From Planctomycetota bacterium (GTDB taxonomy: Bacteria; Planctomycetota; UBA1135; UBA2386): 64,000 bases of DNA. A program made the position numbers and the translations under genes. The notes beneath the pieces are model-generated. The model made no database searches, had not been told where the DNA came from, and worked only from the letters and a program-made list of their open reading frames with translations. The stretch spans positions 1,088,001 to 1,152,000 of the forward strand of contig OZ245006.1 of the NCBI GenBank assembly GCA_965223545.1, read 5' to 3'. Below, in pieces: positions 7,281-23,643 of this stretch (position 1 is the first letter of the stretch; each line of letters starts with the position of its first letter).

Positions 7281-8055
7281 ACACGCGCATGCCGGCGAAC
7301 GAGCCGCTGACCGGCCGCCGCTCGATCGGCAGGGGAATCTGCGCCAGATCGTCGCGCTGGATCAGGCCGTCGTGGCCTGCATGTCGTTGTGGATCGACTC
7401 CGCGATCTCACCCCGATAGAAGTCCTCGTAGCCGGCGGCGGCGAGCCGCCGCAGGGTCCGCGCGAGCACCGGCTGGCGCAGAATGTCGCCGGGGGCGTAC
7501 GCGCGGCGGCCCTCCTTGAGGAAGAACTGCGCCGCGGTACCGCTCTTGAGGTGCTTGAGCTCGCGCACCGTCAGCCGGTGCTGCAGCTCGCTGACCGGAT
7601 AGCCGCCCTCGGCGAGCTCGATCGCGGGCTGCAACACCTGCGCGAACGGCAGCCGGCCGTAGCGCTCGTGCAGATAGCCCAGTGCCGCCGGCGTACTGGG
7701 CACCGTGGTGGCCTGGTGTCCACGCCGCCGCTCGGAGGCCTTCGGCTCCGCCGGCGGCGTGCGGTGCGGCGCGCGCGAGGAGCCATCGACCGCGATCGTC
7801 TTGGCCTGCTCCGCGAGGTAGACCAGCGCCATCGTCTGGCCGCCGAGCCCCGAAGCCGCCGGCTCACAGACGCCGAGCGCGAAGGCAGCCGCGACCGCGG
7901 CATCGACGGCATTGCCCCCCGCCGCCAGTGTCCGCCCGCCGGCTTCGCTCGCACACCAGTGCTTGGGTGGCGACCATGCCGCCGGCGTCCGCCGCCAAAC
8001 GCTGCGGGTAGGTCGGAGTGGAGGCGGGTTTGGCTCGCTTCTTTGGAGCTTCAAC
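7252..8055 (-). pseudogene. ggt: Gamma-glutamyltransferase, frameshifted and 3'-truncated
   Basis: GGMVATQ (frameshift about 7963) HWCASEAG..GGNAVDAAVAAAFALGVCEPAASGLGG..VPST..FYRGEIA..DMQ (frameshift about 7375) HDGLIQRDDLAQIPLPIERRPV..FTLPPPAAGR, then an abrupt end. No small subunit or catalytic Thr. The 5' end is approximate. Confidence 0.8.
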
Positions 8056-8167
8056 GCCCGCCCCACGGCCGGTTGGCCGCCAACCTCGACAGACGCGGGC
8101 ACGCGTGCTCCTGTAACACCCGCGCACCGACGACGACCTATCCGTCCGCGCCCATGGCCCCGCCCGC

Positions 8168-11100
8168 ATGACCTCCACCCTCCCCGAGTCCGAGCGACCA
8201 CCGGCCTCCGGCGACGAGGCGGCACCGCTGACCTTCGGCCAGCAACGGCTGTGGTTGCTCTGGCAGATGGGGCGGCAGCTGACCGAGTACAACGTTCCGC
8301 AGGCGCTGCTGCTCGAGGGGGCGCTCGATCGGCGCGCGCTGGCCAGCGCGATCGATGCCGTCGTGCGCCGGCAAGCTGCCCTGCGCACGGCCCTCACCGA
8401 GGTGGACGGCGAGCCCGCGCAGCGAGTCGTGCCCGCCCGCGCCACCGAGTTCGCCGAGCTCGACTGCAGCGGGACGCCGGACCCGCTGCGGGCCGCGCTC
8501 GACTGGGCCGCCGGTCTCGGCGAGCAGCCGTTCGACTTCGGCGAAGGCCACCTGCTGCGCTGCGGCCTCGCCACGCTCGGCCCGCAGCGGTCCTTGCTGT
8601 CCGTGACCCTGTCGCACTTCGTCTGCGACGGCTGGTCGCTGGGCGTGCTCTGGCGCGAGATCGACCACTACTACGGCGGCGGCGACGGGCCCGCTCCGCT
8701 GCCCCGATCCCTGGTCGAGCACGCGCGGTGGCAACGCCAGCGCTTTCGCGAGCGGCGGCCAGCGCTGGTGCGCTACTGGCGCGAGGCGCTCAGCGGCGCC
8801 CCGACTCTGGTCCTGCCGACCGACGGCGAACGCACCTTCCGCAGCCCGCGGCGCGGCGCCCTGCTGCGCTTCGAGGTCGGAGCGGACACGCTGTGCGCGG
8901 CGCGCGCGCTCGGCGCGGAGTGCGGGGCGACGCTCTACATGGTGCTGCTGGCGGCGGTCAAGACCGTGCTCGCGCGCCACTCCGGTCAGAGCGACGTGGT
9001 GATCGGCTCGCCGATCGCGCACCGCGCCGAGCCGGCGGTCAAGCCACTGATCGGCATGGTCGCCAACATGATGGTGCTGCGCACCGACCTCGGCGGCGAG
9101 CCCTCGTTCCGCGACGTCGTGCAGCGCGTGCGCGAAGTGGTGATCGGCGCGGTGCAGCACTCGGAGATGCCGTTCGAGCAGCTGGTCGCCGAGCTGCGGC
9201 CGCCGCGCGACCGCACCCGCAACCCGCTGTTCGACGTCGTCATGGTGCTCGATGACGAGGCCGCTCCACCGCGCCTCGGCGATCTGTGCGCGCGCGAGCT
9301 GCAGCCGCCGCACACCACCGCAAAGTTCGACCTCACCTTGGCGATGGTGCCTGCGGGCGACGGCCTGCGCGCCGTGCTCGAGTACGACACCGACCTGTTC
9401 GCGCCTGCGCGCATCGAGCGCCTGGTCGGCCACCTGCAGCTGCTGCTGCGCGCCGGCGTCGACAACCCGCAGCAGTGCGTTTGGCGGCTGCCCATGCTCA
9501 CCGAGCGCGAGCTCGGCCGCGTGCTGCCAGGAGCCGCCCGGCTGGCGCGCGGCGCCGCGCCCACGCCGGTGCTGGAACGTATCGCCGCGCAAGTCGCCGC
9601 GCGACCCGACGCCACCGCGATCGTCGATCCCGACGGCACGCACCTCGCGTTCGGCGCGCTGTGGCAGCGCGCGGGCGCACTGGCGGCGCAGCTGCGCGCG
9701 CTCGACGGCGACGGGGACGCGATCGGAGTGCTGCTGCCGCGGGGCATCGACCTGGTCGTGTCCCTGCTGGCGGCGTGGCGCGCCGGCCGCGCCTACGTGC
9801 CGCTGGACCCGTTGCACCCGGCGCCCCGGCTGGCGGCGATGATCGACGATGCCCGCATCGGGTGTGTGGTCGCCGATGCCGTCGATCCCGCGCTCGAACC
9901 TCACCTGCGGGAGCGGGGTGTCGTCCACGTCGCGCCGCGCGCTCCGTCGCCGGCGGACGCGCCGCGGCCGAACGGCGCCGCCGAGACAGCGGGCGCGCTC
10001 GCCTACGTGCTGTTCACATCGGGCTCCACGGGTCGTCCCAAAGGCGTCGAGGTCACGCACTCGGGCCTGGCACACCTGGTCGACTGGCATCTGCGCCGCT
10101 ACCCGGTCGGCCCGGGCGAACGCGCCGTCTCGGTCGCCGGCGCTGGCTTCGACGCCTTTGGCTGGGAGCTCTGGCCCCCGCTCGCCGCCGGCGCCGCGGT
10201 CTGGCTCGCGGACGACGCCGTGCGCGCCGATCCGGCGCGGCTGTGGGCTTGGCTGCGGGACAACGCGGTGCATTGGGCCTTCGCGCCGACCGGCCTCGCC
10301 GAAGCGATGTTGCTGCAGTCCGGTCCCCCACCGCGACACCTCCGCGCATTGCTGACGGGCGGCGAACGCCTGACCCGCCGGCCGCCGCCGGCGCTCGGCT
10401 TCACCGTGCACAACCACTACGGACCGACCGAGGGCACGGTGGTCAGCACGGCGGCCCGCGTCGATCCGGGGCCGGCGGCCGCGGGATCGCCGCCGATCGG
10501 CACGCCGATCGACGGCACCCTCGCGCTGGTCGTCGATCGCTGGCAACAACCGGTTCCGGTCGGCGTCAGCGGCGAGCTGTGGATCGGCGGCGCCGGCGTC
10601 GCCCGCGGCTACCGCGGAGACCCCCAGCGCACGGCGGCCCACTTCGTCGAGCACCCGCTGCTGCCCGGCGTCCCGATGTACCGCACCGGCGACCAGGTGC
10701 GCTGGCGCGAGGACGGCCAGCTCGACTTCGTCGGCCGCCTCGATCACCAGATCAAGATCCGCGGGCTGCGGGTCGAGCTCGGCGAGATCGAGCACGCGCT
10801 GCGACGCCAGCCGGCGGTCGGCGAGGCCGTCTGCGTGGTGCAGGGCGGGGAGCAGGCGCCGCGCCTCGTCGCCTACGTCTGCGCCCGACCCGGGCACCCG
10901 CTCGACGTCGAGCAGCTGCGGGCCGCGCTGCTCGACGCACTCCCGATCGCCATGGTGCCCGCCGCGATCGTGCTGCGCACCGGGTTGCCGCGCACGGCGA
11001 CCGGCAAGGTCGACCGCACCGCTCTGGCCAGCGACGACGCGCGCCTCGAGCGCGGCGCCGCCGACCGCGAGCCACCGCGCGCCGGAGTCGAGCAGCGGCT

Positions 11101-14100
11101 GGCGGCGTTGTGGTGCGATGAGCTCGACCTTTCGCGCGTCGCCCGCGACGACAACCTGTTCGAGATCGGCGGCCACTCGCTGCACGCCATCCGCCTCCGG
11201 CGGCGCATCGAGCGCGAGTTCGGCGTCGCCGTGCCCGTCGCGCTGCTGTTCGAGCACAGCAGCATTGCCACCATGGCGGCCCACCTCGCCGGGCAGGATC
11301 CGGCGGCGCCGCCGGCGCCCACCGCTGCTGCGGACCGCAGCGCCGCGCCCGCCTCCGACAGCGATGGCGAGGCCGATGCGGCGATCGCGATCATCGGCAT
11401 CGGCGGACGGTTTCCGCAGGCAAAGACGCTGGACGAGTTCTGGGACAACTTGTGCGCCGGCCGCGAGGCGGTGCGCTGGTTCGACGACGCCGAGCTGCGC
11501 GCCGCCGGTGGGGTGCCGGACGCGCTCCTGTCGGACCCGCAGTACGTGCCGGCGCGCGCCATCCTCGAGGACATCGATCAGTTCGACGCCGGCTTGTTCC
11601 GCACCAGACCGCGCGAAGCCGAGCAGCTCGATCCCCAGGTCCGCCTGTTCTTGGAAATCGCCTGGCAAACCACCGAGGACGCCGGCTACGACCCCCGGCG
11701 CGTTCCCGGCGAGTGCGGCGTGTACGCCGGCTGCGGCATCAACAGCTACGAGCGCCACTGCCTGGCGCACAACCCCGACTATCGCGCGCGCACGCGCGGG
11801 TTCGAGCAATCGCTGGCCGACCAGCAGTTCTTGACGCTGCACGTCTCGCACAAGCTGGGCTTGCGCGGGCCGAGCCTGCAGATCGACACGGCGTCGTCGA
11901 CCTCGCTGGTCGCCGTCGTGCAGGCCTGCCAGGCGCTGCTCGCCGGCCACTGCGATCTCGCGCTGGCGGGCGGCGTCAACCTGTCGGTCCCCCAGCAGGT
12001 CGGCCACCTGTTCCGCGAGGGCGACATCAACTCGCCCGATGGCCACTGCCGGCCGTTCGACGCGGCGGCCGCCGGCACGGTCGGCGGCGAGGGCGCCGGT
12101 GCGGTGCTGCTCAAGCCGCTGCGCGCAGCGCTGCGCGACGGCGACCCGGTCCGCGCGGTGATCCGCGGCGCGGCGATCAACAACGACGGCAGTGCGAAGG
12201 TCAGCTTCACCGCGCCGAGCGTGCAGGGCCAGGTCGACGTCATCCGCAAGGCGCAGCGCAAAGCGGGCATCGACCCGGCGACGATCGACTACGTCGAGTG
12301 CCACGGCACGGCCACGGCCTTGGGCGACTCGGTGGAGATCGCCGCCCTGCGCCAGGCGTTCGCCGCCGGCGGAGAGCGCGCGGCGCGGTGCACGATCGGC
12401 TCGCTGAAGTCCAACCTGGGTCACCTCGACGCCGCGGCGGGCATCGCCGGCCTGCTCAAGACCGTGCTGAGCCTCGAGCGCGGCGCGCTGCCGCCGACGC
12501 TGCACTTCGAGACCGCCAACCCCGAGCTGCACCTCGACGAGTCGCCCTTCGAGGTCAACACGAGCTTGCGCGCGTGGCCGCGCCACCCGCATCCGCGCCG
12601 CGCCGCGGTCAGCTCGTTCGGCGTCGGCGGCACCAACGCGCACGTCGTGCTGGAGCAGGCGGCGCCGCCGCCGGCGGTGGAGAGCGCGGCGCCGGACGCG
12701 GCCGACGCGGCCTCCCTCCTGGTGCTGTCGGCGCGGAGCGAGGCGGCGTTGGCGCGCATGCGCACAGCGTTGGCCACCCATCTCGAAGCCGGCGGCGGCG
12801 GTCCGCTGCGCGATGTCGCCTGGACCCTGCAAACCGGCCGCCCCGCCTTTCGCCACCGCCACGCAGTGCTCGCCGACGACCGCGCCGGCGCCGTGGCCGC
12901 GCTGCGCGGGGAGCGCGGCTTCAGCGGCACGCGCAGCGACGCGAGTCCGCCGGTCGCCTTCTTGTTGCCCGGTCAGGGCAGCCAGCACGCCGGCATGGGC
13001 GCGGCGCTGTACCGGCACTGCGCCGCCTTTCGCCGCGCGTTCGACGAGTGCGCCGACGGCTTCGCGCCGCTGCTCGAGCTCGACTTGCGCAGCCTGTTGT
13101 GGGGAGACGAGCACGCCGCGCAGCGGGCGCGCCTCGACGAGACGCGGTTCGCGCAGCCGGCCGTGTTCGCCGTCGACTACGCCCTCGCCCGGACCTGGCT
13201 CGAGCTCGGCGTACGGCCCGCGGCGCTGCTCGGCCACAGCCTCGGCGACTGGGTCGCCGCGACCCTGCTGTCGGTGTTTCGGCTCGAGGACGCTCTCCGC
13301 TTGGTCGCGCTGCGCGGCGCGCTCGTGCAGCGGCTGCCGGCCGGCGCCATGCTGCACGTCGAGCACGCCGACGATCCCGTAGCGCTGCGTGGGCTCGGCG
13401 TGCCCGTCGGGGACGGACCGGCCGAGCTCGCGGTCGCCGCCGTCAACACCGAGGACAGCTGCGTGCTCGCCGGCACGGTCGCGGCGGTGGCGGGCGCCGA
13501 GGCCGCGCTGGCAGCCCGCCGGATCGGCTGCCGCCGGCTGGCGACGAGCCACGCGTTCCACTCTGCCATGATGGAGCCCGCCCTCGACGAGCTGGCGGCG
13601 GCGGTCGCCGCCACCGAGCGGCAGCCGCCCGACAGCGAGTGCGCGGTGTACTCGGCGGTGCGCGGGGGACGCATCGCCGCCGAAGCTCTCGCCGACGTCG
13701 ACTACTGGGTCGACAACCTGCGCCAACCGGTGCGGTTCGCCGCCGCGCTCGCCGCGTTGCGACGCGAAACCGCGGCCGTGCTGCTCGAGGTCGGCCCGGG
13801 ACAGGCGCTCACCGCCGCGGGCCGCGCCGGTGGCGACGGCGCGATCGCGATCCCCACCGCCCCGCACCCGGCGCGCGCCGCGCACGAGCTGCGCGCTTGG
13901 CGCGGCGCCGCCGGCCAGCTGTTCATCCGCGGCGTCGACCTGCGTTGGGAGGCGCTGCACGACGGTGAGCGGCGGCGGTGCTCGCTGCCCGGCACGGTCT
14001 TCGCGCGCGAGCGCTACTGGATCGAGCCGCACGCGCCGCACGCGCCCGCGCCGCGGCAAGCCGCGACGGCCAGCGAGGACCGCCTGCCGCGGGAGCAGTG

Positions 14101-17100
14101 GCTGTCGGCGGCGACTTGGCAGCGCGCCGGGCGCGTTCCAACCGCGACGGACACCGGCGGCAAGTTTGCCGTGCTGACCGGCACGCCCGCGTCGCGGGCG
14201 TTGGCCGACCGGCTGGCGGCCGGCGGCGCCGCGGTGCGACGCCACGACGCCGGCTCGCTCGACGACGCCACGCTGCGGGCCTTGCTCGCGGACTCGGGCA
14301 TCGACGCAGTGCTGGTGGCGCACGAGCTGGCGGCGGACGCGCCGGCGACGCCACCGCTCTGGCAGCTGCTCGAGCGGTGCCACCAGCTGCGCACCGCGGG
14401 CGACCGCGACTTCCCGGCGGTGGTCGCGGTCACCGACGGCCTGCTGCCGGTCGCCGGCGAGGCCATCCGACAACGCCACCGGGCGGCCGCCCTCGCCGCG
14501 TGCCAAACGCGACGGCAGTCAGGCTGGATCGACCTGCCCGCGCGCTTCGCAGCCGAAGACTGTGACGCAGTCGCTGCGCTGGTCCGGCGCGCGCGCGGCG
14601 GAACGGTCACGGCGATCCGCGACGGCCTGCTTTGGCAACCGACACATCGAGGCCTGCGGCCCGGCAGCGCGCGCCCGCTGCGCTGCGACGGCACGCATTG
14701 GATCACCGGCGGCACCGGCGGCGTCGGCACCGCCCTCGCGACCGCGCTCGCCGACGCCGGCGCCGAGCGGCTGGTGCTGATCGCGCGGCAGCCGGCCAGT
14801 GCGGCCGCGCTCGCCCGGCTGGCACCGCTGCGCGCGCGGGTCGACGTGCGGATCGTCCGCGCCGACGTCACCGACGCCGCTGCGCTGCGCGCGCTGCTCG
14901 CCGAAACCGGGCCAGTGCGCGGCGTGGTGCACGCCGCGTGCCCCCGCCCGGACAACGACAACGAGGCCACCATCGCGGCGGTGCTGGCCGCCAAGATCGA
15001 CGCCACCGAGCACCTCACCCGACTGCTGGTCGCGCAGCCGCTGCAGTACTTCTGTGTCTGCTCGTCGCTGGCAAGCGTTCTGCCCACGGCCAGTGAAAGC
15101 CGCGTGCGCGCGGCCTACGCCGCGGCCAACGCGTTCCTCGACGCCTGGGCTCAGGACCGCCACCCCTGGCCGACGGTGGCAATCGGCTGGGAGACCTGGC
15201 GCGAGGCAGGCATGGCGCGCGCGGCGCTCGGCGACGAGGCCGCCGACGCGCACCCCGAGCTCGCCCTCGGGCTGAGCGACGCCGACGGCCGTTGGGTGCT
15301 CGGTGCGGCCCTCGGCATGGACGAGCCGCTGGTGCGGGTGTCGACCACGGCGCTCGAGGATCGCTTGCGCGACGTTGCGCCAGCGCCGAACTCTCCCGCC
15401 CCGCGGCCAACCGCAGGGTCGCAGACCGCCGGGCCGGAGTCGATCGAGGCCGCGCTGCGCGCGGCGCTGCTGCCGCTGCTGGGCGTCGATCGGATCGAAG
15501 CCGAAGACGACTTGTTCGAGCTCGGCTTCGACTCCCTGGTCGGCCACCGCTGGATCGCCCGCCTGCGGCAAGCCGGCATCGAGCTGCCGCTGCGCGCGGC
15601 GTTGGAGACGCCGCGGCTGACCGCGCTGGCTGAGGTCGCGCGGCCGATCGAGGCGTCCACTGACGCGCGCGAGCACCCGCTACTCGGCGCGACGCTCGAG
15701 TGCGGTGCGTCGCGCGGCCGCTGGCAATCGACCCTGAGCCCGAGCCGCGACTGGGTTCTCGGCGAGCACCGCGTCGGCGGCCGCGCGGTGCTGGTGGGCA
15801 GCGCCTACCTGGAGCTGGCACGCGCCGCATTCGCCGCCTTCCGCGCCAGCGAACGCGACGCCGACGGACCGGTCGAGATCCGCGACCTCACCCTGCTGCG
15901 CCCGATCACGGCGGCGGACGGCGGCAGCGCGACGCTGCACACCAGCGTGCGGCGCGACGCCGAGAGCGCCGCGTTCGAGGTCTCGGCCGGTGAGCACGGC
16001 CCGCCCTTCGCCACCGCCCGCCTGCGACCCCACCGCGACGCTGACCCCGCCCCGTTGGACCTGGCCGGGTTGCGCCGGGACGGCCGCCGCCTCGAGCCCG
16101 CGGCCGCGCCGACTGCCAGTGGCGCCGCCTTCGGCCCGCGCTGGCGTTGTCTGCGCCAGATCTGGCACTGTGCGGAGGGAATGCTGGCCGAGCTGCAGCT
16201 GCCCGCCGCCCACGCCGAGGCCGACGCTGCCTTCGCGCTGCACCCAGCTGTGCTCGACGCGGGGGTCTGCATCGACGGCGCGCCAACGGCGCAGTTGGTG
16301 CCATTCGCCTACGAACGCGCCACCGTCTACGGCCCTGTGACTGCGCACTGCTTCGCCTGGACGCGAGTACGCGCGCGCGCCGAGCGACAGTGCGTGGTCG
16401 ACGCGGACTGGGTCACGCCGGCCGGTGAGACGTGCCTGTCCGTCCGCGGCCTCGTACTGCGCCGCGCGTCACCCCGCGACAACGCCCGCCTACACATCGC
16501 CACCCCCGGCCTGCTGGAGACCCTGACGCTGGTGCCGGCACCGCGCCGCCCGCCGGCCGCCGGTGAGATCGAGATCGCGGTCGCCTTCGCCGCGCTCAAC
16601 TTCAAAGACGTGCTGCTCGCCCTGGGCAAGATCAGCCACGACGGCAACGCCGAGCCCCCGCTCGGCTTCGAGTGCGCCGGCACCGTCGTGCGCGTCGGCA
16701 CGGGCGTCGACGGACCACACGTGGGCGACTCCGTCGTCGCCCTGGCCCCCGGCGCGGCGGCGCACTACGTCACGTGCGCCGCCAACGCGGTCGCCCGCTG
16801 CCCTGACGGACTCGACCTGGCAGCGGCCGCGACACTGCCCGGCGCCTACCTCACCGCGCACCACGCGTTGGTGACACTGGCAGAGCTCCGGGAAGGCCAG
16901 CGCGTGCTGATCCACGCCGCCACCGGCGGAGTCGGCAGCGCCGCTGTGCACGTCGCTCGCGTACGCGGCGCGGAGGTGCTGGCGACCGCCGGCTCCCCGG
17001 CCAAGCGCGCGCTGCTCCGCGATCGCGGCGTGCGCCACGTCGCCGACTCACGCAGCGACGCATTCGCAACGATGGTCGGCGCCGCGACCGACGGCCGCGG

Positions 17101-17434
17101 CGCGGACATCGTGCTCAACTCCACCACCGGAGCGTTAGCAGCGACCAGCGTAGGTGCGGTCGCCGCCAACGGCCACTTCGTCGAGCTCGGCGTCGCGCTG
17201 CCCGAAGCCGCCCACCGCCGCGGTGACATCCAAGTCCATCGCGTCGTGACCGGCCCCGGCACGCCGTCGTTCGACACCGACTGGCAGGCGGTGGGCGCCG
17301 GCCTGACCGGCGGGGTGTTGCCGCCACTACGCGCCACGGTGTTCGCCGCGGAGCGCGCGGCGCTGGCGTTCGAGCTCATGGCGCGGGGCGAGCATGTTGG
17401 CAAGGTGCTGCTCCACTTTCGCGGCGACGGGTGA
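8168..17434 (+). CDS. Hybrid NRPS-PKS: C-A-PCP-KS(C->S)-AT-KR-ACP-DH-ER
   Basis: C: SHFVCDG. A: FTSGSTGRPKG, YGPTE, YRTGD, GKVDR. PCP: GGHSL. KS: DTASSTS, HGTAT, GHLDAAAG. AT: GHSLG, HAFHS. KR: GGTGGVG, YAAAN. ACP: LGFDSL. DH: HPLLG, HRVGG, HPAVLD. ER: LNFKD, HAATGGVG, GKVLL. Confidence 0.95.
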   Translation: MTSTLPESERPPASGDEAAPLTFGQQRLWLLWQMGRQLTEYNVPQALLLEGALDRRALASAIDAVVRRQAALRTALTEVDGEPAQRVVPARATEFAELDCSGTPDPLRAALDWAAGLGEQPFDFGEGHLLRCGLATLGPQRSLLSVTLSHFVCDGWSLGVLWREIDHYYGGGDGPAPLPRSLVEHARWQRQRFRERRPALVRYWREALSGAPTLVLPTDGERTFRSPRRGALLRFEVGADTLCAARALGAECGATLYMVLLAAVKTVLARHSGQSDVVIGSPIAHRAEPAVKPLIGMVANMMVLRTDLGGEPSFRDVVQRVREVVIGAVQHSEMPFEQLVAELRPPRDRTRNPLFDVVMVLDDEAAPPRLGDLCARELQPPHTTAKFDLTLAMVPAGDGLRAVLEYDTDLFAPARIERLVGHLQLLLRAGVDNPQQCVWRLPMLTERELGRVLPGAARLARGAAPTPVLERIAAQVAARPDATAIVDPDGTHLAFGALWQRAGALAAQLRALDGDGDAIGVLLPRGIDLVVSLLAAWRAGRAYVPLDPLHPAPRLAAMIDDARIGCVVADAVDPALEPHLRERGVVHVAPRAPSPADAPRPNGAAETAGALAYVLFTSGSTGRPKGVEVTHSGLAHLVDWHLRRYPVGPGERAVSVAGAGFDAFGWELWPPLAAGAAVWLADDAVRADPARLWAWLRDNAVHWAFAPTGLAEAMLLQSGPPPRHLRALLTGGERLTRRPPPALGFTVHNHYGPTEGTVVSTAARVDPGPAAAGSPPIGTPIDGTLALVVDRWQQPVPVGVSGELWIGGAGVARGYRGDPQRTAAHFVEHPLLPGVPMYRTGDQVRWREDGQLDFVGRLDHQIKIRGLRVELGEIEHALRRQPAVGEAVCVVQGGEQAPRLVAYVCARPGHPLDVEQLRAALLDALPIAMVPAAIVLRTGLPRTATGKVDRTALASDDARLERGAADREPPRAGVEQRLAALWCDELDLSRVARDDNLFEIGGHSLHAIRLRRRIEREFGVAVPVALLFEHSSIATMAAHLAGQDPAAPPAPTAAADRSAAPASDSDGEADAAIAIIGIGGRFPQAKTLDEFWDNLCAGREAVRWFDDAELRAAGGVPDALLSDPQYVPARAILEDIDQFDAGLFRTRPREAEQLDPQVRLFLEIAWQTTEDAGYDPRRVPGECGVYAGCGINSYERHCLAHNPDYRARTRGFEQSLADQQFLTLHVSHKLGLRGPSLQIDTASSTSLVAVVQACQALLAGHCDLALAGGVNLSVPQQVGHLFREGDINSPDGHCRPFDAAAAGTVGGEGAGAVLLKPLRAALRDGDPVRAVIRGAAINNDGSAKVSFTAPSVQGQVDVIRKAQRKAGIDPATIDYVECHGTATALGDSVEIAALRQAFAAGGERAARCTIGSLKSNLGHLDAAAGIAGLLKTVLSLERGALPPTLHFETANPELHLDESPFEVNTSLRAWPRHPHPRRAAVSSFGVGGTNAHVVLEQAAPPPAVESAAPDAADAASLLVLSARSEAALARMRTALATHLEAGGGGPLRDVAWTLQTGRPAFRHRHAVLADDRAGAVAALRGERGFSGTRSDASPPVAFLLPGQGSQHAGMGAALYRHCAAFRRAFDECADGFAPLLELDLRSLLWGDEHAAQRARLDETRFAQPAVFAVDYALARTWLELGVRPAALLGHSLGDWVAATLLSVFRLEDALRLVALRGALVQRLPAGAMLHVEHADDPVALRGLGVPVGDGPAELAVAAVNTEDSCVLAGTVAAVAGAEAALAARRIGCRRLATSHAFHSAMMEPALDELAAAVAATERQPPDSECAVYSAVRGGRIAAEALADVDYWVDNLRQPVRFAAALAALRRETAAVLLEVGPGQALTAAGRAGGDGAIAIPTAPHPARAAHELRAWRGAAGQLFIRGVDLRWEALHDGERRRCSLPGTVFARERYWIEPHAPHAPAPRQAATASEDRLPREQWLSAATWQRAGRVPTATDTGGKFAVLTGTPASRALADRLAAGGAAVRRHDAGSLDDATLRALLADSGIDAVLVAHELAADAPATPPLWQLLERCHQLRTAGDRDFPAVVAVTDGLLPVAGEAIRQRHRAAALAACQTRRQSGWIDLPARFAAEDCDAVAALVRRARGGTVTAIRDGLLWQPTHRGLRPGSARPLRCDGTHWITGGTGGVGTALATALADAGAERLVLIARQPASAAALARLAPLRARVDVRIVRADVTDAAALRALLAETGPVRGVVHAACPRPDNDNEATIAAVLAAKIDATEHLTRLLVAQPLQYFCVCSSLASVLPTASESRVRAAYAAANAFLDAWAQDRHPWPTVAIGWETWREAGMARAALGDEAADAHPELALGLSDADGRWVLGAALGMDEPLVRVSTTALEDRLRDVAPAPNSPAPRPTAGSQTAGPESIEAALRAALLPLLGVDRIEAEDDLFELGFDSLVGHRWIARLRQAGIELPLRAALETPRLTALAEVARPIEASTDAREHPLLGATLECGASRGRWQSTLSPSRDWVLGEHRVGGRAVLVGSAYLELARAAFAAFRASERDADGPVEIRDLTLLRPITAADGGSATLHTSVRRDAESAAFEVSAGEHGPPFATARLRPHRDADPAPLDLAGLRRDGRRLEPAAAPTASGAAFGPRWRCLRQIWHCAEGMLAELQLPAAHAEADAAFALHPAVLDAGVCIDGAPTAQLVPFAYERATVYGPVTAHCFAWTRVRARAERQCVVDADWVTPAGETCLSVRGLVLRRASPRDNARLHIATPGLLETLTLVPAPRRPPAAGEIEIAVAFAALNFKDVLLALGKISHDGNAEPPLGFECAGTVVRVGTGVDGPHVGDSVVALAPGAAAHYVTCAANAVARCPDGLDLAAAATLPGAYLTAHHALVTLAELREGQRVLIHAATGGVGSAAVHVARVRGAEVLATAGSPAKRALLRDRGVRHVADSRSDAFATMVGAATDGRGADIVLNSTTGALAATSVGAVAANGHFVELGVALPEAAHRRGDIQVHRVVTGPGTPSFDTDWQAVGAGLTGGVLPPLRATVFAAERAALAFELMARGEHVGKVLLHFRGDG

Positions 17435-18030
17435 GCGTCTGGGGCCGAGAATCCTCGAGCGGCAACAACATTTCCGAAGGCCGGTTGTCGTCGGGACTTC
17501 GATACCGCAACTCCCGCACGCTCGAAAGCAACACTGGCGTCTGCGCTCAGCGCGGCCGCGGCGACCGCGGGACCCGCGACCGACGCTCGGGTCGCGGAAT
17601 GCTCCGTGTTTGGTTGCGGCCTCGGCCACGCTGAGCCTCAGGGTCCGCAAATCATCGCGCGGCGACAACCTTTCGGAAGGCTCGATGCCGCTGGACTTCG
17701 ACAACGCAGCTCCCGGAGGCTCGAAGACAACACTGGCCTCTGCGCTCAGCGCGGTCGCCGGCGACCGCGGGACCCGCGACCGACGCTCGGGTCGCGGAAT
17801 GCTCCGTGTTTGGTTGCGGCCTCGGCCGCGCTGAGCCTCCGGCGCCTCGAATCGTCGAGCGGCGACAACATTCTCGAGGCGACGTCGCCGCCTTGGCAGC
17901 GACGCTGCCGCGCCGGAGGCTCGGAGAGACAGTGCCTCCTGGCTCAGCGCGGCGGCGGATGGGTCGGGCCTTCCAAGCCGCTCCGGGAAAAGCGGCATCC
18001 GAGTTTGCGGCCTCGGCCGCGCTGAGAATC
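17431..18030. repeat. Tandem array of three ~200-bp units, each with an internal inverted repeat (REP/BIME-like)
   Basis: gcgaccgcgggacccgcgaccgacgctcgggtcgcggaatgctccgtgtttggttgcggcctcggcc occurs identically at 17561 and 17761. A third degenerate unit ends at about 18026. Each unit has gctcagcgcgg ... cc(a/g)cgctgag arms. Confidence 0.85.
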
Positions 18031-18295
18031 CGACCCGTCGGGTGACTTGGCTCGGCCGCTCGACCGAAGCCAGGGCTCCCTTCACCCCGTCACGAGCCGC
18101 AAGTAGGGGCAGGGGAACCGGGCGACTCCTTATATTTCGCCGGTTGGTCGCTTCCGCCGGCTGGATTCAGACCCATTCGCACCGCGGTCTACGGACACTA
18201 TGGCGACGTCGCTCTTTACGAAAGACCATTTGGAAATGTGCGGTGGCTCTCCAGACAAAATCTGAACCAAAGGTCGTCGCGCTGAACGCGCCCAA

Positions 18296-19705
18296 TCATC
18301 TCTTAGCAAGCAATTCCGCAATGGCCGCACCCAGTCCCGAAGTCGGGCGAGCCGCTTCGAGGTCCAAGAACCTGCCATCTGCGTCGACCAGGAAGTAGTG
18401 CGGCACCCCCGAAACTCCGAACGCGGTGTAGGGTGCCGATTCGAACCCACCACCGGCCCACAAGCGATGTTCGTTGGCAGACGCCAAACCGCGCTCCTTC
18501 AACGCATCTCGCCATCGTTGTTGTTCATCGTCGACGTTGAGACTCACGAATGCGACGCGGTCGTCCCCACGATAGCTCTCGACGAGATTCTCCCACGCAG
18601 CCGCTTCAACCTTGCAATGCGGACACCAACTCGCCCAGAACTCGATAACGACGAGGCGGCCGTGCAGCGCCGTTGCAGTAAACGCCTTACCTCGTTCGTC
18701 GATGGCCTTGACCGCTGGCGCCGGGCGACCCGGCTGCAGCCCACGCGTCCGGTCCGCGTGCTCTCGCACGATATCCATTAGTGCTGACGATGCCGTGTTG
18801 TTGAGCGCCTGCACAACAGCTGCACGGCCCTCATCATCCAGACCCTCCAATCTGCGAATAGCGCTACGGCCGAGCATGTAGTGCCGCGCGGCATCGTCGG
18901 CCGCCGAAGCACTCACAAATCGAAACCACTCTTCGTGTTGCGACTCGCCCGTCGGACCATCGTGCAGCAGCTCTAGTGGCCTCTGCCACCCACCGTCTGC
19001 CGTCAAATAGTGGGAATCGATAGGCAATAGAGTTCGCGCATATTCCAACAGCGCCGCGGCACTCGCGTCGTCGCGCTTGAAACGGGCGTGGGTCTCGAAT
19101 GCGTACTCGACTCGTGACGCTATGCCTCGCCGCAAGTAGTGCGCTTCGACTTCGCTGAGCTGACCGGCTGTGTGGGCGGCGGCTACTTTGGACCTGGCAG
19201 TCCCGCTCAGTCGGTTGACCGCGTCGATAAACGCTGGCGTCTCGCTCTTCAGCGGGAACGCCATGATGTCGAGCAGACTCGCGAACTCCTGCGCCAAGGT
19301 GTTTGCCTTGTCGTCGACAGGAAACACCATACCGTCTGCCAATCGCTCGACATCGCCGCGGAAGGACGTCGTCTTGCCAGGACGCAAGAAGAGCGGCACT
19401 ACTCGAAGCTGGTCCAAGACTAGAAAGGCTGTGCACGGAACGGATACTGCGGCGCGCCCTTGCAGACGTCCATCAGCAGCAACCGTGACCCGCCCTGCCG
19501 ACGTTTGCCTGAGTTTCCAAAGGTCCAGGACCAGAAGCGGATATTGCCCCGGAGGGCAGTGCCGCAGTAGGCCTTCGACGTCGGCATGACCTACCCCCGG
19601 CACTTCACTGCCAGGTGGCGCCTCGTTTTGGTGGCGCGGAACGACCGTGCATGACGGCAACCACACGAACGTGAGGGCGAGTAAGGAATTGCGATTCCTT
19701 GACAT
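18296..19705 (-). CDS. TlpA/ResA-like thioredoxin-fold lipoprotein with N-terminal extension
   Basis: Signal and lipobox MSRNRNSLLALTFVWLPSC. C-terminal VVIEFWASWCPHCK..FVSLNVD..GVPHYFLVDADG. Visibly lower GC than the flanks. Confidence 0.85.
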   Translation of the reverse strand: MSRNRNSLLALTFVWLPSCTVVPRHQNEAPPGSEVPGVGHADVEGLLRHCPPGQYPLLVLDLWKLRQTSAGRVTVAADGRLQGRAAVSVPCTAFLVLDQLRVVPLFLRPGKTTSFRGDVERLADGMVFPVDDKANTLAQEFASLLDIMAFPLKSETPAFIDAVNRLSGTARSKVAAAHTAGQLSEVEAHYLRRGIASRVEYAFETHARFKRDDASAAALLEYARTLLPIDSHYLTADGGWQRPLELLHDGPTGESQHEEWFRFVSASAADDAARHYMLGRSAIRRLEGLDDEGRAAVVQALNNTASSALMDIVREHADRTRGLQPGRPAPAVKAIDERGKAFTATALHGRLVVIEFWASWCPHCKVEAAAWENLVESYRGDDRVAFVSLNVDDEQQRWRDALKERGLASANEHRLWAGGGFESAPYTAFGVSGVPHYFLVDADGRFLDLEAARPTSGLGAAIAELLAKR

Positions 19706-19884
19706 GGCTTGATTCTCGAACCGAAAAGGCACGCTCTTGGTGAGACCCGACTCCGAACACAATGCGCGTTCTGTAACGAGTTGCCTGCAACCGCCTCGGC
19801 GGCTTCACTGTAGCGGGAGCCAGAGGCCGGGGCAACGCCAGGCCAGACCCAAGGTGGTAGCTCCCGACACGATCTTCGCTTTTC

Positions 19885-22800
19885 CTACCAGTCCGCGCCG
19901 CCAACGAACCTCCGGCGCAACGCGTCCAGCGGCTCGAGTCCCGCTAGCACGACGTCAGCGCTCAAACCGAAGTCGAGCAGACAAGCGATCTCGTCCACCC
20001 CTGCCGCGACCAGCCGTTGCACCATCGCGACCGCGGTGTCGACGCTGCCGAACAGCGCTCCGTCACGCAGATGACCCTCGACGGCGTGCTCGAGCCAAGC
20101 GTCCGCGTTCGCGCGCAGCGCGCGGCGCTCCGCCGAAGCCGCGTCGAGGCGCTCCTCGTGCTGCGCCAAGAACGCGCGCAGGTAGCCACGCATCGGGGCG
20201 CGCACCGCGTCGAACACGGCCGCGTCCGGGGCCCCCAAGTAGCAGTGCAGCATGACGGTCACCTGCCCTGGGCCCTCGTGGCCGGCTGCGCGGCGCAGCT
20301 GCCGGTACTCGGCAATGCGTTGTGCCAGCACGTCGATCGGCTGGTTGACCAGGCCGGTGAGCACGTTGGTGCCGAGCTCGGCGGCGAGCCGCCAGGTCTC
20401 GGGGTTGGCGGCGATCGAGATCCACAGTGGCAGCTCCGCTTGCACGGGGCGCGGCAAGATACGCACCTCGTGCCGGCCGCCGTCGCAGTCGTCGAACGCG
20501 ACGCTCTCACCCGCCCACAGCGCGCGCAGCTGCTCCAGTTGGCGCCGCGTGTCGGCGCCGCGGGTGGCGTGCGACGAACGCGCCAGCACGAAGTCGCGCG
20601 GATGCCAGCCACAGGCCACCGACAGGCCGACGCGGCCGCCCGACAGGTTGTCGATCACCGCCCAGTCCTCGGCGACGCGCACCGGGTGGTGCAGTGGCAG
20701 CACCACGCTGCCGGCGCGGAGCGCGATGCGCTCGGTCGCGGTCGCCAGCGCCGCGGCGGTGACCGCGGGGTTGGGATACAGACCGCCGAACGCCTGAAAG
20801 TGCCGCTCGGGCGTCCAGACGGCGGCGAATCCGGCGCGGTCGGCGGCGCGCGCGCACTCGAGCAACAGGCGATAGCGTGCGGGCTCGGTCGTGGTGCCGT
20901 CGGCGGAGAAGAACAGCAGGCTGAACTGCACCGCGCCCGCCGCCGACTCCGCTGGCGGCGCCACGCGGGGCGCGGCGGGCACCGGCGCCTCCAATGGTGC
21001 CGCGGATCGCGCCGGGGGCGCAGCCCCATCGACACCGTCCGCATCGGCGGCGAGCGAGCTGGCCGGGGCGTCGCGCAGCCGCGCCGCCAGCGCCGCCGCG
21101 CTGGGCGCATCGAACACTTCCCGCAACGTCACGGTCCGCCCGGTGCGCTCCTCGAGCTCCGCGATCAGCGAGAACGCGAGCAACGAGTTGCCGCCGAGCT
21201 CGAAGAAGTCGTCGTCCGCGCGCGCGGCGTCACCGAACACGTGCTGCCAGGCAGCCAGGGTCGCCACACCGAAATCGACTGCGGCGGCCGGAGCACGGGC
21301 AGCCGGCGCGGCGGCCCCGGTGGCGGCCGCCGCAGCAGTGCGCTCGACGGGGCGCTCGACCGGCGGACTCCACGGCAGCCGCACCCGGGCAAACGGGTAG
21401 CCGGGCAGAGAGACCCGACGCGCGGGCCGCTCGCCGCGCACCACGCGCCAATCGACCGCCACGCCGGCCGCCCAAAGGGCAGCCACAGCTTGATCGCAGG
21501 CGCGCTGAGCGTTGCGCGCGCGCGGATCCAGCCCGGCGACCACCACCGGCTGGTCGGGGTGCGCTGCGAGCTGGCCGACCAACGCGCTGCCGACCCCGAC
21601 CTGCAGCAGGACGCGCGCTTCTCGCGTGGCGCGACCGACCGCCGCCCACAGCCCCTCGGCGTCGTCGCCGCACAGCACGGGTGGTGCACCGCCGTCCCGC
21701 TCCGGCCGCGCCACCGCGCCACCGAGGGTCGCTCGCAGCGCTGCTTCGACCGACACCGCGCCGACCACCGCGCGCGCCGCGTTGGTCGCGCCGGTGCCGC
21801 TCGCCACCAGCGCCACGGGCGCGCCCAGCGCGCGCTGCCACCACTCCGCGGCCGCGATCTGCAGGGCGGCGTGGGCGGCCCGCGCCTCGGCGGCATCCGC
21901 CGGCGGCGGTGCAGTCCCCGCGAGCCACGCCGCGGCCGCGCCGCCACCCAGGTCTTGCAGCACTCGCGCACCGCGAGCGAGGGCGGCGCCCAGCGCGGGC
22001 CCCGCCTCGCGCCACGCGGAGAGCCACTCCCCAGCCGGCAGCGGCTCGCCGTCCGCGAGCACCAGCCCGACCGGCGCTTCTGGCAGCACGGCGCGCACCG
22101 CGCCGGCCGCGACCCTCTGCAGCGCCGCGGCGGCCTCGGTCGTGCTGTCGGCCACCAACGCAACGCGGTGCAGCAGCGCACGACGCCCACTCTGCAGCGT
22201 GTGCGCCACCGCCGCCAGCGACGGACCCTCTGCCTGCAGGTGCCGCGCGACGGCCGCCGCCGCCGCGAGCACCGCTTCGACGGATTGGCCCGAGAGCGGC
22301 AGCACCTCGCTGCGCACTGCCGCGTCGCCAGCCGAGGTGCCCGACTGCTCTGCCGCGGAGTCCGGGGCCTCCTGCACGACGACGTGCGCGTTGGTGCCGC
22401 CGACGCCGAACGCGCTGACCCCGGCGCGGCGCACGCCCGACCGCGGCCAAGGGCGCAGCGCATCGTTGACGAAGAACGGCGTCCGCGCGAACTCGATCTC
22501 GGCGTTGGGCCGGCGGTAGTGCAGGCTCGGCGGCACCACGCCGTGCTGGACGGCGAGCACGGTCTTGATCAGGCCGGCGACACCCGCCGCGGCGTCGAGA
22601 TGACCGATGTTGGTCTTCACCGAGCCGAGCGCGCAGCCGCCCGCTTCGACGCCGCCGAACGCCTCGGTCAACGCCGCCACCTCGATCGGGTCGCCGAGCG
22701 CGGTACCGGTGCCGTGCGCCTCGACCATGCCGATGCTGTCCGGCCGCACCCCCGCCACCGACAGCGCCTCGCGCACCACGTCGATCTGCCCGGACACGCC

Positions 22801-23643
22801 GGGCGCGGCAAAGCCCGCCTTGGTGCCGCCGTCGTTGTTGATCGCCGAGCCGATCAACAGCGCGCGCACGGCGTCCCCATCCGCGACCGCGTCGGCGAGC
22901 CGCCGCAGGACCACGACGCCGACGCCATTGCCGGTGACGGTGCCGGCGGCGTCGCGATCGAACGCGCGGCAGTGCCCGTCGGGTGAGGCGATCCCGCCCT
23001 CGACGTAGCGATAGCCGCGCTCCTGCGGCCACGCGATCGCGACCCCACCGGCGAGCACGAGATCGGCATCGCCGGACAGCAAACTCTGGCAGGCGAGATG
23101 CACCGCCACCAGCGACGTCGAGCACGCCGTCTGCACGGCCACGCTCGGCCCGCGCAGGTCGAGGTGGTAGGACACGGTGCTCGGCGTGAAGTCGACGTCG
23201 CGCTCGATGCGGTCCTGGACCGCCGACGCCGGACTCGACGCGGCGGTGCCGGCGGAACTCGGCCGAGCACCGGCGAACACGCCGATGCGGAGCGCGCTGC
23301 GCGCGGGATCGTGACCCGCATCGTCGAGCGCCGCCCAGCAGCACTCGAGGAACACCCGGCGCTGCGGGTCCATGCGCGCCGCCTGCCCCGGCGGGATGCC
23401 GAACACGGCCGCGTCGAACGCCTCGGCATCGGCCAGACAACCCCGCGCCTTCACGTAGCGCGGGTCGTCGAGCACCGCCTGGTCGACGCCCGCGGCGCGC
23501 AGCGCGGCCGAATCGAAGCGCGTGATGCCCTCGCGCCCGTCACACAGCAGCCGCCAGAACGCGGCGGCATCAGCGGCGCCCGGAAAGCGACAGGCCAGAC
23601 CGGTGACCGCGATCGAATCCGCTGGCGCTTCTTGACCGTTCAT
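19885..23643 (-). CDS. Type I PKS: KS - degenerate AT - ACP - luciferase-like monooxygenase (MupA/Atu3671-type LLM)
   Basis: KS: QTACSTSL, EAHGTGT, GHLDAAAG. The AT region lacks GHSxG and HAFH/YASH. ACP: DFFELGGNSL. LLM: FSLLFFS, AVWTPERHF..FGGLYPNP, RAGSVVLPLHHPVRVAEDWAVIDNLSGGRVG, GVDEIACLLDFG. Confidence 0.92.
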   Translation of the reverse strand: MNGQEAPADSIAVTGLACRFPGAADAAAFWRLLCDGREGITRFDSAALRAAGVDQAVLDDPRYVKARGCLADAEAFDAAVFGIPPGQAARMDPQRRVFLECCWAALDDAGHDPARSALRIGVFAGARPSSAGTAASSPASAVQDRIERDVDFTPSTVSYHLDLRGPSVAVQTACSTSLVAVHLACQSLLSGDADLVLAGGVAIAWPQERGYRYVEGGIASPDGHCRAFDRDAAGTVTGNGVGVVVLRRLADAVADGDAVRALLIGSAINNDGGTKAGFAAPGVSGQIDVVREALSVAGVRPDSIGMVEAHGTGTALGDPIEVAALTEAFGGVEAGGCALGSVKTNIGHLDAAAGVAGLIKTVLAVQHGVVPPSLHYRRPNAEIEFARTPFFVNDALRPWPRSGVRRAGVSAFGVGGTNAHVVVQEAPDSAAEQSGTSAGDAAVRSEVLPLSGQSVEAVLAAAAAVARHLQAEGPSLAAVAHTLQSGRRALLHRVALVADSTTEAAAALQRVAAGAVRAVLPEAPVGLVLADGEPLPAGEWLSAWREAGPALGAALARGARVLQDLGGGAAAAWLAGTAPPPADAAEARAAHAALQIAAAEWWQRALGAPVALVASGTGATNAARAVVGAVSVEAALRATLGGAVARPERDGGAPPVLCGDDAEGLWAAVGRATREARVLLQVGVGSALVGQLAAHPDQPVVVAGLDPRARNAQRACDQAVAALWAAGVAVDWRVVRGERPARRVSLPGYPFARVRLPWSPPVERPVERTAAAAATGAAAPAARAPAAAVDFGVATLAAWQHVFGDAARADDDFFELGGNSLLAFSLIAELEERTGRTVTLREVFDAPSAAALAARLRDAPASSLAADADGVDGAAPPARSAAPLEAPVPAAPRVAPPAESAAGAVQFSLLFFSADGTTTEPARYRLLLECARAADRAGFAAVWTPERHFQAFGGLYPNPAVTAAALATATERIALRAGSVVLPLHHPVRVAEDWAVIDNLSGGRVGLSVACGWHPRDFVLARSSHATRGADTRRQLEQLRALWAGESVAFDDCDGGRHEVRILPRPVQAELPLWISIAANPETWRLAAELGTNVLTGLVNQPIDVLAQRIAEYRQLRRAAGHEGPGQVTVMLHCYLGAPDAAVFDAVRAPMRGYLRAFLAQHEERLDAASAERRALRANADAWLEHAVEGHLRDGALFGSVDTAVAMVQRLVAAGVDEIACLLDFGLSADVVLAGLEPLDALRRRFVGGADW

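Follow-up and report, generated by a model that had tools for sequence, protein, structure and literature searches.

A serine ketosynthase of independent origin behind an amino-acid module in a Planctomycetota NRPS/PKS gene pair

Serine ketosynthases (KSs), modules without an acyltransferase (AT) and modules bearing a monooxygenase are each already known separately. In the colibactin pathway, the available text of PMC10491745 describes ClbI as a KS with Ser178 that acts after the peptidyl carrier protein (PCP) of ClbH and forms a cyclopropane from tethered S-adenosylmethionine (SAM), and it calls the role of the serine uncertain; whether a natural serine KS can accept and elongate a chain is unsettled. 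The accessible part of a second report on ClbI indicates that a serine-KS module after a PCP can yield a β-keto thioester (10.1101/567248), and the ClbH-A2 adenylation (A) domain is described, in the excerpt of PMC5490422 available, as lacking Asp235. For the monooxygenases, the accessible sections of PMC10952193 present MupA as α-hydroxylating a thioester carried on an acyl carrier protein (ACP), and those of PMC9594780 give micD of the microginin pathway as annotated with a similar monooxygenase domain. Here we analyze a 64,000-nt stretch of a Planctomycetota bacterium (contig OZ245006.1, positions 1,088,001 to 1,152,000), hereafter the window, in which a hybrid non-ribosomal peptide synthetase (NRPS)/polyketide synthase (PKS) gene, gene 1, encodes a serine KS directly after an A-PCP module and lies tail to tail with a PKS gene, gene 2, that has a cysteine KS and a degenerate AT.

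The initial annotation of the window held that the KS of gene 1 has serine for cysteine, keeps both histidines and stands beside an intact AT, and each part of this is borne out. By Pfam domain order and motif checks, gene 1 comprises condensation (C), A, PCP, KS, AT, ketoreductase (KR), ACP, dehydratase (DH) and enoylreductase (ER) domains, listed here in window coordinates.

8168..17434, + strand: gene 1, hybrid NRPS/PKS of 3088 aa, Pfam domain order C-A-PCP-KS(Ser)-AT-KR-ACP-DH-ER
8219..9511, + strand: C domain, motif SHFVCDG, second His and Asp retained (motif check)
9587..11008, + strand: A domain, pocket DAWFLGHVVK
11093..11287, + strand: PCP, serine of GGHS intact
11381..12667, + strand: KS, Ser for Cys, both His and Lys retained
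11894..11896, + strand: serine codon TCG at the catalytic KS position, motif DTASSTS, identical codon in the G009 ortholog (below)
12959..13840, + strand: AT, GHSLG and HAFH, malonyl type
14690..15205, + strand: KR, TGGTGGVG and K/S/Y/N retained, short deletions close by
15440..15637, + strand: ACP, motif GFDS, N-terminal of DH and ER
15674..16474, + strand: DH, His (EHRVGG) and Asp (HPAVLD) retained
16559..17413, + strand: ER, C-terminal, GGVG motif retained

HGTAT and KSNLGHL are present in the KS alongside DTASSTS. Non-elongating KS0 domains are characterized, in the part of PMC7327777 available, by loss of the HGTG histidine; this histidine is retained in gene 1 (HGTAT) and the residue lost is the cysteine, which rules out the KS0 type. 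The placement of the ACP before DH and ER had been overlooked in the annotation. No TubC_N docking domain was found N-terminal of the C domain.

The serine is real and old, because an ortholog in a second genome has the same TCG serine. This genome (G009), from another genus of the same family, contains the same tail-to-tail gene pair; the domain order of its gene 1 ortholog matches that of gene 1, and the catalytic site reads DTASSTG. The KS His/Lys/His, both carrier serines and the AT motifs are retained in each ortholog, along with the catalytic residues in KR, DH and ER and the motifs of the C, A and PCP domains. A sequencing or assembly error at 11894-11896, which the initial annotation already thought unlikely, has a negligible probability: only a single contig is known to encode the window protein, but an independent assembly from another genus carries the same TCG codon and effectively refutes it. 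The genome containing the window (G000; 8.1 Mb, 2 contigs, 91% complete) encodes nine type I KSs, eight of them with Cys. A DH-ER search of 91 family genomes recovered the permuted protein from G000 and G009 and from no other; an order-wide pattern that also admitted the cysteine codon matched 3 of 339 genomes, and two of its six matches (G000 and G009) have serine. A protein search with the gene 1 KS region returned no ortholog, its matches being dominated by multi-KS proteins. Directly upstream of the G009 gene 1 ortholog lies a cupin/JmjC gene (L043:513-1328, G009 C10), whose ortholog in G000 (72%) is distant, at C1:5788841-5789647.

We built KS trees with FastTree and, for 44 rows, with IQ-TREE; the latter tree excludes ClbK, ClbO, L078, L082 and most database rows. 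In it, the two serine KSs form a clade (100/96) within an otherwise-cysteine clade of 12 rows (99/97), and the KS of a hybrid on G009 C36 is their sister (91/98). A single clade uniting this pair with ClbI and its relatives was rejected by the approximately unbiased (AU) test (p-AU 4.4e-8). The serine of gene 1 arose independently of ClbI, and orthology of its KS to ClbI is ruled out; it falls outside the ClbI clade.

The A domain of gene 1 appears to be of the Leu type and is not of the ClbH-A2 type. Its pocket, read by the PheA numbering, is identical in the window, the G009 ortholog and a cysteine paralog on G009 C32, and is one residue from McyB, the closest solved match, which prefers Leu. 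Because the same pocket occurs in the cysteine paralog, we conclude that no substrate switch accompanied the serine. In the region of Asp235 the window reads FDAFGWE, the ortholog FDAAVWE and ClbH-A2 ASASFVGE, with Asp235 retained in the window. FAAL-ACP-C-A-PCP-KS(Ser)-AT modules occur at L073:5902-16086, L075:3-6758, L066:3961-14116 and in L076, in Herpetosiphonaceae and Thermoanaerobaculaceae. In L066, L073 and L075 the A domains (three aligned) bear the ClbH-A2 signature, and the KSs fall together with ClbI (93/90), so these loci serve as a positive control; all four modules are likely of the cyclopropane type, outside enterobacteria.

Serine KSs were also sought by pattern. The scan of the genome collection found a KS in 10 of 21 loci, the other 11 being chance matches, and the metagenome scan gave ten loci, among them no gene 1 ortholog: four type I serine KSs in long open reading frames, two KS fragments in short frames, and four loci without a KS. 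With the window included and L078 and L082 treated as one, the serine-KS systems number 14; in nine of them the KS comes directly after an A-PCP module, a share partly built in, as the pattern targets a hybrid-type motif and some rows are kin. Asp235 is kept in L072, L082 and L091 as well, where the serine KS likewise directly follows an A-PCP module. Within hybrid-type KSs, well-supported branches force at least three origins of serine, and the best tree has six. Serine is rare, given that it occupies 1 of the 118 scored sites among the 120 closest shorter PCP-KS matches. One protein, L086:2191-11220, has the layout KS(Ser)-AT-ACP-KS(Cys)-no AT-DH-ER-KR-ACP, a reciprocal arrangement in cis.

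The initial annotation was also right that gene 2 combines a normal KS with a degenerate AT: its AT region has no GHSxG, no HAFH and no Pfam AT match.

19885..23643, − strand: gene 2, 1252 aa, KS(Cys)-AT remnant-ACP-luciferase-like monooxygenase (LLM), convergent with gene 1
22369..23619, − strand: KS of gene 2, QTACSTS (codon TGC), HGTGT and KTNIGHL
21589..22071, − strand: AT remnant, catalytic motif gone, about 105 aa deleted in frame
21076..21255, − strand: ACP of gene 2, serine of GGNS intact
19915..20925, − strand: flavin mononucleotide (FMN)-dependent LLM of the MupA/Atu3671 family, full length, TIGR04020 over cut-off

The AT span is 161 aa versus 267-275 aa in intact homologs, with ASG in place of GHS and the HAFH stretch deleted in frame; if it works, gene 2 must be supplied with malonyl in trans, as had been proposed. 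The C-terminal MupA/Atu3671 monooxygenase, overlooked in the annotation, scores 428 bits against TIGR04020 (cut-off 244) over model positions 1-341. Among the matches listed, 70 of 119 gene 2 homologs have the exact KS-AT-ACP-LLM layout and 83 of the 85 that bear the monooxygenase retain GHSxG, P0032 being one further AT-less protein among these 85. Of these 85, two extend into a C domain and two bear a thioesterase, so that either protein of the pair may act first.

In G009, the gene 2 ortholog is a complete KS-AT-ACP-LLM protein with GHSLGE and HAFH intact beside the serine KS; the serine is therefore older than the AT loss and independent of it. AT-degenerate modules are also found beside cysteine KSs (C1:3079038 in G000; C32 and C36 in G009), so AT loss is common in the group whatever the KS residue. 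The designed reciprocal pair of the initial annotation does not survive these observations: serine KS and partner AT loss co-occur in none of the orthologous loci (0 of 1), and the intact G009 partner AT rules out obligate reciprocity of the two defects.

In a paralogous pair on G009 C36 (L047:6362-13676 and L048:3049-12369) both ATs are degenerate: one protein is an AT-less KS-ACP whose monooxygenase is degenerate too, and the other is a hybrid that has a cysteine KS. The gene 2 KS groups with its G009 ortholog (99/96) and then with the C36 partner (96/94) in the 44-row tree. As the C36 pair is sister to both genes, the pair was likely duplicated as one unit before either defect, and the partnership would be older than both. 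Adjoining the C36 pair is a cassette of discrete A, AT, 3-hydroxyacyl dehydrogenase and ACP, which resembles an aminomalonyl supply set; no close match to it was found in G000 (best 35-39%). TubC_N is absent from both serine-KS proteins and present in two of their three cysteine paralogs. In G000, a cysteine paralog of gene 1 lies at C1:3467686.

The gene 1/gene 2 pair lacks a starter domain as well as a thioesterase or any other release domain and so provides no evidence of a closed two-gene line. Thioesterase matches lie at five other places in G000, and the type I KSs and 14 condensation-domain matches are scattered across the chromosome. Neither a FAAL-type match anywhere in this 91% complete genome nor a stand-alone AT gene near the pair was found; the ATs of G000 are seven cis-ATs and a sole stand-alone AT over the cut-off, FabD-like by sequence, and these could serve gene 2. 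The second AT-less KS-ACP protein of G000 (C1:3079038) has two cysteine-KS hybrids in its vicinity. NRPS/PKS genes of one or two modules are found at C1:292-306 kb, 3046-3083 kb, 3467 kb, 4785 kb and other places; most of their KSs have a one-to-one G009 ortholog, and some of the genes adjoin sulfotransferase and glycosyltransferase genes.

We tentatively favor the reading that gene 1 is a working, probably slower, elongating module that acts through a serine O-ester, and that gene 2 is acylated in trans by any malonyl-AT. The A domain would load a Leu-like amino acid, the peptidyl chain would pass from the PCP to the KS serine as an O-ester, malonyl-ACP would condense with it there, and KR, DH and ER would fully reduce the product to a γ-amino-acid unit. 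Any of the cell's malonyl-ATs would load the gene 2 ACP in trans, gene 2 having lost its own AT separately from the serine change; gene 2 would extend the acyl chain by malonyl, and its monooxygenase may α-hydroxylate the ACP-bound thioester as MupA does. Chain start and release would depend on modules encoded at other places in the genome, the two genes being, with the same reserve, part of a genome-dispersed NRPS/PKS set. Gene 2 acting before gene 1 is only slightly favored. Every catalytic step in this scheme is inferred from sequence. We favor elongation because KR, DH and ER require a β-keto product, the NRPS part upstream has retained its motifs, and a precedent exists in ClbI.

Several points weigh against elongation. 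The gene 1-type serine KS is known from two genomes only, and the cyclopropane chemistry to which the ClbI serine is tied offers no reason for its retention, as the A domain in the window does not suggest such chemistry. Polyene serine KSs are described, in the part of PMC12843615 available, as decarboxylating only or as reduced in condensation. The A, AT, KR, DH and ER domains of the serine pair are also less conserved than those of a cysteine pair that shares the layout (A 49% vs 64% identity, AT 49% vs 72%, KR 45% vs 70%, DH 38% vs 57%, ER 49% vs 66%), and the window copy exceeds its ortholog in unique substitutions, with 57 vs 24 for the KS (p=3e-4) and 57 vs 22 for the DH (p=1e-4). This excess is significant with both outgroups (p 1e-4 to 8e-4), that in KR and pseudo-KR with one, and the cysteine control pair showed no rate asymmetry below 0.05 in 10 regions with 2 outgroups. 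The roughly twofold rate of the window copy in KS and DH makes relaxed selection a live rival, under which the serine inactivated the module in a common ancestor and the lost AT would mark continued erosion in a slow decay, at least in G000. The rate excess, the short deletions around the KR, the low-GC gene and repeats inserted between the genes, and a truncated gene upstream all fit such decay, which we nonetheless consider unlikely: both frames are open (3088 and 1252 codons; GC content at third codon positions, GC3, 0.91 and 0.89), all other catalytic residues checked are retained in two genera, and the monooxygenase is full length and over its cut-off. By Nei-Gojobori on these high-GC genes, a rough estimate, ω is at most 0.50 in every domain; the serine-KS pair is 68% identical with ω 0.27, within the 60-75% and 0.20-0.39 of seven cysteine pairs, and unrelated orthologs between the two genera are often 50-79% identical. 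We read this as drift or specialization in the window lineage, not as a pseudogene. That the serine instead performs extra chemistry on the PCP-bound residue, as in the cyclopropane formation of ClbI from tethered SAM, we regard as improbable; the substitution and its post-PCP position are the same and the serine is kept across two genera, but the A domain keeps Asp235 and has none of the ClbH-A2 signature of L066, L073 and L075 (compare the available excerpt of PMC5490422), a single clade with ClbI is rejected as above, and the same A pocket precedes a cysteine KS on G009 C32.

The main rival to elongation is priming of the polyene type, the strongest form of the complementation that the initial annotation proposed. 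Here the serine KS would only decarboxylate malonyl-ACP, the gene 2 cysteine KS would condense, possibly on the gene 1 ACP with KR, DH and ER, and the gene 1 AT would load both ACPs. Natamycin provides a model in its CAL-ACP-KS(S)-AT-ACP protein, where the accessible text of PMC12843615 describes an idle upstream part and a decarboxylating KS, and L086 combines KS(Ser)-AT-ACP with an AT-less cysteine KS in one protein. The lack of a starter domain in the pair and of a FAAL-type match in G000 (91% complete) would suit a self-starting system, as would the absence from both serine-KS proteins of the TubC_N carried by two of three cysteine paralogs. Priming nevertheless has to contend with the intact partner AT of G009, with AT loss beside cysteine KSs, and with upstream C, A and PCP motifs that are retained, the C domain being no less conserved than that of the cysteine pair (55% vs 50% identity); KR/DH/ER and C-A-PCP would have no role under it unless acting across proteins. 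We hold it to be unlikely, if the most serious alternative. A more elaborate and rather improbable form is a split self-priming line, in which the serine KS makes acetyl from malonyl, the gene 2 cysteine KS condenses in trans on the gene 1 ACP with KR, DH and ER, the gene 1 AT feeds both ACPs and so permitted the gene 2 AT deletion, and the hydroxylated chain returns to the gene 1 C domain; if this were true, the chain would move from one protein to the other at least twice.

Between the two genes lie two further features.

17432..18040, no strand assigned: 200-bp dispersed repeat, three copies, intergenic
18296..19762, − strand: low-GC thioredoxin/redoxin-domain gene between gene 1 and gene 2, absent between the G009 orthologs

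The repeat has 77 genome matches of at least 150 bp. The thioredoxin/redoxin gene has a GC3 of 0.67 and a C-terminal domain, and is single copy in the genome. Upstream, at 7362-8225, a gamma-glutamyltranspeptidase-like gene covers profile positions 3-193 of 512 only; three other homologs lie elsewhere in G000.

The initial annotation had assumed that serine KSs usually do not follow a PCP, which overlooks ClbI (described in the available text of PMC10491745); in the literature searched, with most subscription papers outside its scope, we found no other published serine KS after a PCP and no report of the KS-AT-KR-ACP-DH-ER order. Four of the best 150 matches among 1.84 billion representatives have this order, and all four match the G000 and G009 proteins by length and layout. 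The new elements are a serine KS of independent origin that follows a plain amino-acid module and is accompanied by a complete reductive set, the matched cysteine paralogs, and this domain order. Gene 1 would be a clean test of elongation by serine, as serine and cysteine paralogs of the same domain order occur in the same two genomes without SAM chemistry, and one of them shares the A pocket. Given the repeated origin of serine in hybrid-type KSs, assembly lines may be misread by tools that label these domains dead. As a natural permutation of a module, the ACP-before-DH-ER order is useful to PKS engineering.

Compared with known systems, gene 1 shares with colibactin ClbH-ClbI a Cys-to-Ser KS directly after an A-PCP module, with both histidines and an intact HAFH AT, and colibactin also contains AT-degenerate cysteine-KS modules (ClbC, ClbK and ClbO, with no AT match). 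The window KS differs in its independent origin, its apparently Leu-type A domain with Asp235 where ClbH-A2 is of the SAM-loading type, and the fusion of its NRPS and PKS parts, after which come KR-ACP-DH-ER. In polyene KS-S loading modules (nystatin, amphotericin, natamycin), Ser likewise replaces Cys, the histidines are kept and the AT is of the malonyl type, and the natamycin CAL-ACP-KS(S)-AT-ACP adds an upstream carrier module, as far as the accessible text of PMC12843615 describes it. In contrast to these, the C-A-PCP upstream in gene 1 keeps its motifs, so that this is not a first module with an absent or inactive upstream part, and behind its KS comes a complete set of KR, DH and ER that retains the catalytic residues. 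The domain set of canonical cis-AT reducing modules (KS-AT-DH-ER-KR-ACP) is that of the PKS part of gene 1, whose order is instead KS-AT-KR-ACP-DH-ER. Gene 2 resembles the KS-AT-ACP-LLM proteins of the MupA/Atu3671 family in exceeding the TIGR04020 cut-off and differs in its deleted AT, and as an AT-less module it resembles those of trans-AT systems with a dedicated discrete AT.

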